From Bacteroidales bacterium UBA2287 (GTDB taxonomy: Bacteria; Bacteroidota; Bacteroidia; Bacteroidales; Tenuifilaceae): a stretch of 50,131 bases of DNA. The stretch spans positions 1 to 50,131 of the forward strand of contig DDWL01000030.1 in the NCBI GenBank assembly GCA_002345675.1, in the 5' to 3' direction. A program made the position numbers and the translations under genes. Under the pieces are notes generated by a model. The model made no database searches and was not told the DNA's origin. It saw nothing but the letters and a program-made list of their open reading frames with translations. Positions 19,502-21,886 of this stretch are shown piece after piece (within the stretch, counting starts at the first letter, position 1; the number at the start of each line of letters is the position of its first letter).

Positions 19502-21886
19502 ATGAAGTTTTTTAGAAACTTAAATATCACTCAACGCATTCAAATTGTAGCACTTACTATGCTGCTTTTACTTTTCATTATTTCTGCGTTAGTTGTGTTC
19601 AGTTTCTCCCTAAAGCGAGTATACAGCACTACCGACAGGCAAATGGAAACTTACCTAAACCAGATTTCGGTAATTGTTAACATGGCCGAGCAAAAAACAA
19701 GCTCGGGGTTCGACTTTAACGACCACGCAATACTAAAGCCAATTTTCAGTTCGAGCGCCTTTCTTAAAACCGACTACCCATTTCTTGTAAGCACTTCGGG
19801 CGAATACCTTATTCACCTTTACAAGGAAAAACATAAAATACCAAAAGCAGAACTATCGCAAATAGTTTCGCACTCAAGCCAATTTGGCTATGTAAAATAC
19901 TTCGAAACTAAAAACGACAAAGAAGAAGAGTATCGATTGTACTTTAAAAAAATCGATACCTATAATGCAATAGTTGGCGTTCCTGTTTCGGTAAACGAAC
20001 TAACATCGAGTTTAAAAGCAAACAGGGTAGTTCTGCTAATATTTGTTCTGTTAGGTTCAGTAGCATCAGTAATTGCGCTATATTACGTATTAAGGCCAAT
20101 TCGAAATGCCATTAACAATGTAACATCAAGCATTGCCATGTTATCGCAAGGCAAAATTCCCGAGAAAGCAACCTTCGAGTTTAACGATGAGATTGGCGAC
20201 ATAACAAAACTACTCAACAACCTTATTGATGGAATGGAGCGCACCGCCGATTTTGCCATTGAAATTGGGAATAAAAATTTAGAAGCAACCTTCGAGCCGC
20301 TTGGTCCAAACGACAGGCTTGGCAATGCGCTAATTAACAATCGCGAAAGCCTTAAAAAAGCCTACGAAGAAGAACAACAACGCAAAGAGGAGGACGATAA
20401 GCGTAACTGGGTTACCATGGGTCTTGCAAAATTTGGGGAAATACTTCGTCAAAACAACAACAACCTGCAGCTGCTCTCCGACAATGTTCTTCAAAACCTT
20501 ATCGACTACCTAAACGCCAATCAAGGTGGCCTTTTTACCTATAACGACGACGATACAAGCAACATTTACCTCGAGTTGGTTTCGGCATTTGCCTATAATC
20601 GTAAAAAATTCAAACAAAAAACAATTCAACTTGGCGAAGGCTTGGTTGGCAACTGCGCCGTTGAGAAGAAAACCGTACACCTAAGAGAAGTTCCAACAAA
20701 CTACCTCGAAATCACTTCGGGATTAGGCGACACACCACCACGGTCAATTATTGTAGTGCCCTTAAAGCTTGAGGATAAAATTTTTGGAGTTATCGAAATA
20801 GCTTCGCTAACCGATTTTAGCGACCACGAAATCGACTTTGTCGAAAAAATTGGCGAAAGCATTGCGTCAACTCTTTCGGCTGTTCGCAATAACATCAAGA
20901 CAAATTACTTGCTTGAGCAATCGCAACAGCAACGGGAAGAAATGGCCGCTCAGGAAGAAGAGATGCGCCAAAACATGGAGGAAATGCTTGCCACTCAGGA
21001 AGAAATGTCGCGCAAGTCAATTGAAATGGAGGGTATGTCGTCGGCAATAAACGAAACGCTTCTATTCGCCGAGCTAACCGAGGACGGGTACTTCACTTCG
21101 TCGAACATGAAAACCATGCAGCTGCTTGAGTATAGCCGCACCGAACTTGAGGTTAAAAAAATCGAAGACATTATCCACCCCGACGATTTCGTATTTTTCC
21201 AAGCAGCATGGAACGAAGTTCAATCGGGCAGCCCATACAAAGGCACTCTTCGCTGGGTTACCCGGAACGACGAAAATCCTTATATTTTAACAAGTATTAC
21301 CCCAACCTATAGCGAAACTGGTGAACTATTTAAAATTTACATTATTGGCCAAGACGTAACCGAGTCGAAGCTGCTTGAGCTAAGGGCTCAAAAGCAAGCC
21401 GAAGAAATTGAGCAAAGTCTACTCGAAATTCAAGTTGAACAAGACATTTCGAAGAGCAAAGAAGAGGAAATGTCGCTTCTACTTCAGGCACTCGACCAAA
21501 CCTGCTTGGTTACCGAAATTAGTGTCGATGGTACTATAACCTATATCAACCATAAAAATGTTGATACACTTGGCGACCGCAAAGAGCTTATTGAAGGCCG
21601 AAAGCATGACGAGTTAGACATGATGGCGCGCAAAAACCCTGAGCAGTACAAAGCAATGTGGGATCAGCTACTTGTTGGTAAAAAAGTTACCCGCGAATTT
21701 TCGCTTTTGGTAAATAATAATAAGGTATGGGTTTCCGAAAACTACATACCTGTTCGTAATTCATTGGGCGAAATTTCGAAAATTATAAATATAGGAATCG
21801 ACATTTCATTGTTTAAGCAAAAGGAAGAGGAACTTTTAGCTCAGCTAAAAGGCGGCAAGGGAAACAAAAACGAAGAAAAGTCATAG
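19502..21886 (+). CDS. Membrane sensor: TM-periplasmic domain-TM-HAMP-GAF-coiled coil-PAS-PAS, with no output domain
   Basis: Two TM segments flank a ~150-aa extracytoplasmic domain. The GAF domain has '[20 protein letters not shown]...GVIEIASL'. A Glu-rich heptad segment '[24 protein letters not shown]' follows. Confidence 0.7.
   Translation: [794 protein letters not shown]

Follow-up and report, generated by a model that had tools for sequence, protein, structure and literature searches.

The locus considered here lies in a stretch of 50,131 nucleotides from Bacteroidales bacterium UBA2287 (contig DDWL01000030.1, positions 1 to 50,131; hereafter the window), and it raises the question of what CheR and CheB, the enzymes of chemoreceptor methylation, act upon in an operon in which Pfam finds no protein with the signalling domain of a methyl-accepting chemotaxis protein (MCP). 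An earlier note on this DNA named as their most plausible substrate a helix with paired glutamates that follows the GAF domain in two co-encoded sensors. Judged from sequence, we consider this somewhat more likely than not: the Glu-pair helix is best read as a methyl-accepting coiled coil and a candidate substrate of CheR and CheB. The two sensors and the parts of them that matter here are as follows.

19502..21886, + strand: sensor 1, with two transmembrane (TM) segments, HAMP, GAF, Glu-pair helix, PAS and PAS, and no output domain (Pfam, translation)
20822..21058, + strand: continuous helix of sensor 1 from GAF to PAS, aa 441-519; the AlphaFold2 helix is fragment residues 132-210, with a predicted local distance difference test score (pLDDT) of 95-98 over the motif
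20888..21034, + strand: Glu-pair module of sensor 1, aa 463-511; hidden Markov model (HMM) match 1.2e-17; holds the top-conserved 35-aa window
20978..20995, + strand: EEMLAT of sensor 1, aa 493-498; exact Glu-Glu-X-X-Ala-Thr, with E494 as predicted methyl acceptor
24109..26721, + strand: sensor 2 (the PP2C sensor), with TM, GAF, Glu-pair helix, PAS, PAS and a PP2C (SpoIIE/SiaA-like) phosphatase (Pfam; NCBIfam SiaA on the C-terminal part, 9.2e-50)
25033..25176, + strand: Glu-pair module of sensor 2, aa 309-356; HMM match 9.1e-14; EELRQNAEEM invariant in 40 orthologs
25123..25140, + strand: EEMRAT of sensor 2, aa 339-344; exact consensus match, with E340 as predicted methyl acceptor

The description of the two helices in the earlier note largely holds. 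Pfam confirms that both have a GAF domain directly before them, with two PAS domains after. The 42-residue peptide quoted for sensor 1 (aa 465-506, nt 20894-21019) stands as written within 20881-21037, although that range starts one base out of frame and runs into stop codons unless read from 20882; its counterpart in sensor 2, IKTEKLLQEAQQMAQELKENEEELRQNAEEMRATHEELEKSN (aa 311-352, nt 25039-25164), lies in frame within 25021-25190, and the common core EE(M/L)RQN.EEM.AT.EE(M/L) was correctly given. It was also right that neither sensor has the MCP signalling hairpin, as the Pfam family MCPsignal (PF00015) matches neither protein at E<=0.01, nor the isolated helices at E<=10. Pfam likewise detects no HisKA or HATPase domain in either. 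Sensor 2 ends in a SpoIIE/PP2C domain (Pfam SpoIIE 1.4e-17), on which the SiaA family NF038263 matches the C-terminal 264 aa only (169.8 bits; cutoff 700). For sensor 1, Pfam recognises no output. Paralogy between the two sensors runs through linker, GAF and helix over 270 aa, at 38% identity (E=2e-49), and their alignment stops just past the helix. Gene conversion between them was considered and rejected, since the helices are ~45% identical and the paralogy extends over the full 270 aa. Within the window the HMM finds the module in these two proteins only, and in Pfam and NCBIfam searches with the helices and with the whole proteins no family spanned the helix.

The predicted structure is that of a heptad-repeat helix carrying Glu-Glu pairs, as had been proposed. 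AlphaFold2, run on the GAF-helix-PAS fragment of sensor 1 with a 22-sequence alignment, returned a single unbroken helix over aa 441-519. The segment represents a single copy of a module, conserved and ~45-50 residues in length, that forms the middle part of this long helix leading from the last GAF helix into PAS. The methionines M481, M488, M495 and M502 are spaced by exactly 7 residues, which sets a register with Met or Leu at d and, in both sensors, four successive Glu-Glu pairs at b/c; so placed, they line the exposed b/c face as an acidic stripe. At the centre lies the heptad M-E-E-M-L-A-T (sensor 1) or A-E-E-M-R-A-T (sensor 2). Residues at a are for the most part polar (R/E/M/Q), and such a polar core, with Glu and Gln around one hydrophobic a residue, suggests that the coiled coil, presumably a parallel dimer, is marginally stable and switchable.

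Conservation of the segment is exceptional. The 42 sensor-1 orthologs share 44-59% identity overall, yet a stretch of 33 residues in the helix is practically invariant; the best-conserved 35-residue window of the whole protein begins at aa 470 and scores 0.973, where the mean is 0.64, and the longest invariant run, 13 residues, falls inside the helix. In 67 genes this peptide is spelled in 66 distinct nucleotide versions, with synonymous sites saturated, and selection therefore acts at the protein level. In sensor 2, EELRQNAEEM is unchanged in 40 orthologs. An ortholog alignment had been put forward as the means by which the proposal could fail, and in it the Glu pairs are near-invariant in both sensors. 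Among 585 instances of the module, whose consensus is ..LLEESQQQAEEL(R/K)AQEEE(L/M)RQN(M/L)EEL.ATQEEM.R, the exposed residues E24, E25, E26, R28, Q29, N30, E32 and E33 are 91-96% conserved and the core d positions, less conserved than these, exchange Leu and Met freely. Exposed residues that are more conserved than the core point to recognition by a partner, beyond packing alone.

These data bear directly on the simplest objection, namely that the resemblance to a methylation helix is a by-product of Glu-rich, low-complexity coiled-coil composition with no specific function. A profile of the helix run against PDB sequences matched nothing but designed coiled coils with EEL repeats, and the isolated helices weakly match assorted Pfam coiled-coil families. 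Composition would not, however, account for a 13-residue run that is invariant under saturated synonymous change, for the helix being the top-conserved segment of sensor 1, or for the number of proteins that share it: a search with the module profile of 1.84 billion cluster representatives gave at least 4,791 matching proteins at E<=0.001 and at least 3,474 at E<=1e-10, many with 2-10 copies. We regard this explanation as hardly credible, and effectively refuted by the conservation data.

The helix also matches a known methylation consensus. In E. coli the methylation consensus is EEXXA(S/T), of which the second Glu is methylated (PMC1079850). Across the eight operon proteins, 2,993 aa in all, this motif is present just twice, at 493-498 of sensor 1 and at 339-344 of sensor 2. 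The alanine at +3 and the threonine at +4 are 76% and 79% conserved across the module family, and the flanking Glu pairs show exchange with Gln, with E61/Q16 at column 19 and E63/Q10 at column 40 (16% and 10% Gln).

Both sensors are embedded among genes that would supply the necessary enzymes:

18641..19480, + strand: CheR1, canonical protein-glutamate methyltransferase (Pfam CheR 1.2e-39)
21889..22725, + strand: CheR2, divergent CheR paralog with non-canonical S-adenosylmethionine (SAM)-binding motifs (Pfam CheR 1.1e-17)
22736..23296, + strand: CheB, methylesterase domain only (Pfam CheB_methylest 1.2e-49)
23298..24104, + strand: small membrane GAF protein with two TM segments and GAF, and no Glu-pair helix (translation, Pfam, HMM)
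26759..27334, + strand: SiaB-family protein kinase (DUF6272) (NCBIfam NF038262, 173.8 bits against a cutoff of 85; Pfam DUF6272)
27346..27729, + strand: SiaC-family phosphoprotein (Pfam SiaC 3e-42, 143.5 bits against 24.5)
27763..30858, + strand: TerB-ABC-ABC2 (ABCG-like) transporter (Pfam), which follows SiaC in 33 of the 33 loci long enough

By their motifs the CheR1 and CheB enzymes look active. CheR1 keeps the canonical motifs for SAM binding and catalysis: IWHAGCSTGQEVYS, ASDLN and CRNVIIYF align with CheR from B. subtilis (5FTW) and do not vary among 46 orthologs. The Ser, His and Asp motifs of CheB (GGSAGS, LHRLKH and GANKDGA) are invariant in 42. CheB homologs are 184-190 aa long, which indicates a true start at the ATG of 22736 rather than at the TTG of a mechanical open reading frame (ORF) that overlaps CheR2 (22586-22735); among the 120 matches listed all CheB homologs were at least 79% identical, so that no distant CheB contexts were sampled. 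CheR2 differs at the SAM-binding motifs, where GCSTGEE is replaced by ANFDSGEE (A(A/S/N)FDSGEE across orthologs) and ATDID by LSYMS, with the aspartate missing. The variant residues are themselves conserved in 42 orthologs, and from its sequence CheR2 may be a pseudo-methyltransferase or a regulator.

A scan restricted to one genome per species returned 80 loci, all from Bacteroidales or Bacteroidota, of which the closest belong to Tenuifilaceae, Perlabentimonas and metagenome-assembled genomes labelled "Rikenellaceae". The gene order CheR1, sensor 1, CheR2, CheB, GAF protein, sensor 2, SiaB, SiaC is kept in ~50 Bacteroidales species-level loci. Every orthologous operon has the small two-TM protein, conserved at only 33-46% identity and with a GAF domain of the same type as the sensors, between the genes for CheB and sensor 2, and an unannotated ORF of 312 aa (30895-31833) comes after the transporter in 29 of the 33 loci.

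How far, then, does the helix resemble a genuine methylation helix? Like the methylation helices in Tsr and Tar from E. coli, it carries heptad-spaced Glu/Gln pairs on exposed b/c positions; MEEMLAT of sensor 1 mirrors MEQLTAT of Tsr (site Q311); the E/Q exchange of the flanking pairs is that seen at MCP methylation sites; CheR and CheB are co-encoded with the sensors; and the receptors here have MCP-like N-terminal parts (two TM segments, a Cache or 4HB sensor, HAMP). An hhalign comparison with Tsr methylation helix 1, the sequence of which was checked against PDB entries, places a 13-residue stretch of the helix on Tsr 303-315 (EETAASMEQLTAT) over 13 columns, with two Glu pairs on sites 304 and 311, at a probability of 1.2%, which is not significant, and this register is therefore a resemblance of pattern and no evidence of homology. 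The differences are as clear: the sensors have neither an MCP signalling hairpin nor profile-detectable homology to MCPs, their output is a PP2C phosphatase or none, and CheB has no receiver domain.

Several observations weigh against the helix as a substrate. The profile search of PDB sequences found no MCP chain at E<=10. The ten-residue consensus [ASTG][ASTG]xx[EQ][EQ]xx[ASTG][ASTG], in which the earlier note had seen the likeness to MCPs, has no match in the eight operon proteins; the shorter form is present exactly once per sensor. The central two Glu pairs are Gln in 1-2% of the 585 instances, almost never, unlike typical MCP sites. A single helix from GAF to PAS also differs from the antiparallel four-helix bundle of MCPs.

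The genomic neighbourhood adds to this side. Outside the orthologous operon, CheR or CheB occurs within 10 kb of the module in 2 of ~35 sampled loci (L047 and L064). Neither enzyme is fused to the module in any of the 148 top representatives, and five further module genes have no CheR or CheB within 10 kb. Of the two exceptions, L047 (711-13394) has three receptors with several modules each, of which two end in hemerythrin domains, together with a Fic-domain gene, and a distant CheR (31-34% identity), with which a metagenome scan gave no matches, and a CheB follow at the end of the contig; L064 is a further variant layout of module with CheR and CheB. The scarcity of these neighbours resembles the situation of scattered MCP genes, and it fits a methylation-independent helix equally.

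Kinase relatives point the same way. A related GAF-helix-HisKA unit, LLEQSQRLTEELQSQQEELQQTNEELEE, is found in poly-HAMP hybrid kinases, and 4 of 4 such loci lack CheR and CheB within 10 kb. As in the module, the helix comes after a GAF domain, begins with LLEQSQ and bears heptad-spaced EE(L) pairs; unlike the module it is without the Ala-Thr that completes the consensus, and it runs into the kinase domain. The poly-HAMP-GAF-helix-HisKA genes of L081, L082, L085 and L086 are split into many short ORFs, probably through frameshift errors in the assemblies.

Taken together, the rare CheR and CheB neighbours, the lack of detectable MCP homology and the kinase relatives mean that the helix could be mainly a signalling coiled coil. 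On this alternative it would be purely a connector of the S-helix type, relaying conformational change from GAF (or PAS) into the PAS or output domain that follows, the polar residues that are conserved would make up a network within the dimer, and CheR and CheB would act on another site or protein. In its favour, the predicted helix joins two signalling domains continuously, linker, GAF and helix have been inherited as a whole unit, the module genes mostly have no CheR or CheB nearby, and there are invariant polar residues at core a positions (E24, Q38) of the kind typical of switchable linkers; S-helix linkers, too, are long helices that connect signalling domains and have polar residues in their core. 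Yet the surface residues of the module are far more conserved than expected of a plain linker, the exposed b, c, e, f and g residues being conserved above the core, and the Ala and Thr that complete the consensus are kept in the module and absent from the kinase-type helix. CheR and CheB also require a substrate, and no operon protein offers either an MCP signalling domain or a second consensus site. Moreover, a signalling role is compatible with methylation, as MCP methylation helices are signalling helices too. We therefore take this alternative seriously but think it unlikely in its pure form.

The claim that the helix is the likeliest substrate of CheR and CheB thus emerges with weight on both sides: for it speak the conservation of the Glu pairs, the conserved linkage to the two enzymes (~50 species and two other layouts) and the sole EEXXA(S/T) sites of the operon, and against it the missing profile-level homology to MCPs, the occurrence of the module in thousands of proteins, the 2 of ~35 outside loci and the kinase relatives.

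The wider family shows what kind of proteins carry the module. It sits after GAF or PAS and usually before PAS, and a sample of 44 family members has Cache, 4HB_MCP, HAMP, GAF and PAS domains, with a SpoIIE phosphatase domain in 2 of the 44; histidine kinase, GGDEF and MCPsignal are not among the 25 commonest families in this sample. The family proteins look like chemoreceptors in which the signalling hairpin has been exchanged for GAF, helix and PAS. In some proteins the module forms pure tandem arrays with a period of 63 or 70 residues (9 or 10 heptads) and no domain in between, which indicates that it is an autonomous unit. Two long helical proteins, P0059 (locus L083, 10001-12778) and P0080, show the exact 70- or 63-residue period, each copy with a shared 16-residue sequence. 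P0055 (locus L084, 10001-15970) has 1,989 aa, one GAF domain and about ten [module-PAS] repeats, with no CheR or CheB within 10 kb; its gene is followed by a small ORF and then a stand-alone HisKA-HATPase kinase. When the 87-aa helix was used as a protein query it matched short fragments only, and several JGI fragments, scarcely more than the helix, carry the automatic name "methyl-accepting chemotaxis protein".

Tandem receptor pairs are also frequent (L056-L058, L060, L063, L065-L067, L071, L072 and L078-L080), a TM-HAMP-GAF-module-PAS protein being followed by one of dCache-HAMP-GAF-module-PAS, neither with an output domain. Alternatively, then, the helix might serve mainly as a surface for docking or hetero-oligomerisation, through which the output-less sensor 1 pairs with the PP2C sensor or a common partner, e.g., CheR2, is bound. 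The frequency of such pairs, the want of an output domain in sensor 1 and most family members, a core sequence near-identical between the paralogs that would allow mixed coiled coils, and the conservation of CheR2 despite its missing canonical SAM-binding residues would all suit such a role. The interaction itself has no direct support, however; a simple pairing interface sits badly with proteins that have as many as 10 modules or consist of pure tandem arrays, and the conserved and intact CheR1 and CheB of the operon would go unexplained. We consider docking as the main function to be distinctly improbable, and return to methylation of the helix as the reading that we favour.

If the helix is methylated, it is probably a variant of the predicted MAC class, judged by the published descriptions of that class. 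MiST 3.0 (PMC6943060) lists MAC proteins, to which CheB and CheR are either fused (MAC1) or associated (MAC2); a 2022 preprint describes them as not yet characterised by experiment and as joining the roles of receptor and kinase (bioRxiv 10.1101/2022.05.07.491037). By description the likeness is considerable: MAC proteins are not MCPs but have a coiled coil for which methylation is predicted, and they occur in organisms possibly without other chemotaxis genes; here, too, Glu pairs of the methylation type lie outside an MCP, in a helical heptad register with a consensus site, and separate genes for CheR1, CheR2 and CheB share the operon in ~50 species. They differ in that both sensors here, and nearly all of the family members sampled, are without a histidine kinase domain; instead the sensors would feed a partner switch like that of SiaA, SiaB and SiaC. 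The switch resembles the SiaA/SiaB/SiaC/SiaD system of P. aeruginosa, with a SiaA-like PP2C (C-terminal part), a SiaB-family kinase and SiaC in the same gene order. In contrast to that system, the phosphatase bears GAF, helix, PAS and PAS, the operon includes two CheR genes and CheB, and there is no SiaD diguanylate cyclase: no GGDEF protein is encoded in the operon, and the gene that follows SiaC is that of the TerB-ABC transporter, which may be an output of the SiaB/SiaC switch in place of the cyclase. The literature searched contained no description of this system, or of CheR and CheB linked with GAF-helix-PAS receptors or with SiaB and SiaC.

The mechanism that we infer, in its methylation step, its acceptor residues and its effect on signalling, would run as follows. 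CheR1 would methylate at least one glutamate of the helix, the best candidates being E494 of sensor 1 and E340 of sensor 2 and after these the flanking pairs, and the receiver-less CheB would take the methyl groups off. With the acidic stripe neutralised, a coiled coil that is marginally stable would change in stability or packing, and this in turn would reset the strength with which GAF and HAMP input reaches the PAS domains. The signal in sensor 2 would pass to the PP2C phosphatase and so to the switch formed by the SiaB kinase and the SiaC phosphoprotein, with the conserved downstream ABC transporter as a possible final target. The whole would amount to a chemoreceptor-like methylation adaptation loop coupled to a partner-switch output and not to CheA.

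This leads us to speculate further, and more tentatively, about the phylum. To our knowledge, Bacteroidota are without classical chemotaxis and chemoreceptors, and we know of experimental demonstrations of methylation by CheR and CheB for MCPs only. It is possible, if less than likely, that Bacteroidota possess a large parallel family of chemoreceptor-like proteins (Cache/4HB, HAMP, GAF, methyl-accepting helix and PAS, with no output of their own and, in some members, up to ten modules) that is adapted by CheR and CheB and feeds PP2C, SiaB and SiaC rather than CheA, possibly gating an ABC transporter.

Should methylation of the helix prove true, sensory adaptation by methylation would be tied to a Ser/Thr phosphatase pathway, and the reversible methylation of glutamates would serve for adaptation in general, independent of CheA or motility. 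The operon represents a compact test case, with two candidate glutamates (E494 and E340), a canonical CheR, a receiver-less CheB and a tractable readout in the action of PP2C on phosphorylated SiaC. Methylation, if confirmed, would also supply a role for the thousands of Cache-HAMP-GAF-PAS "orphan" receptors without output domain that Bacteroidota encode, those of gut and sediment lineages among them.

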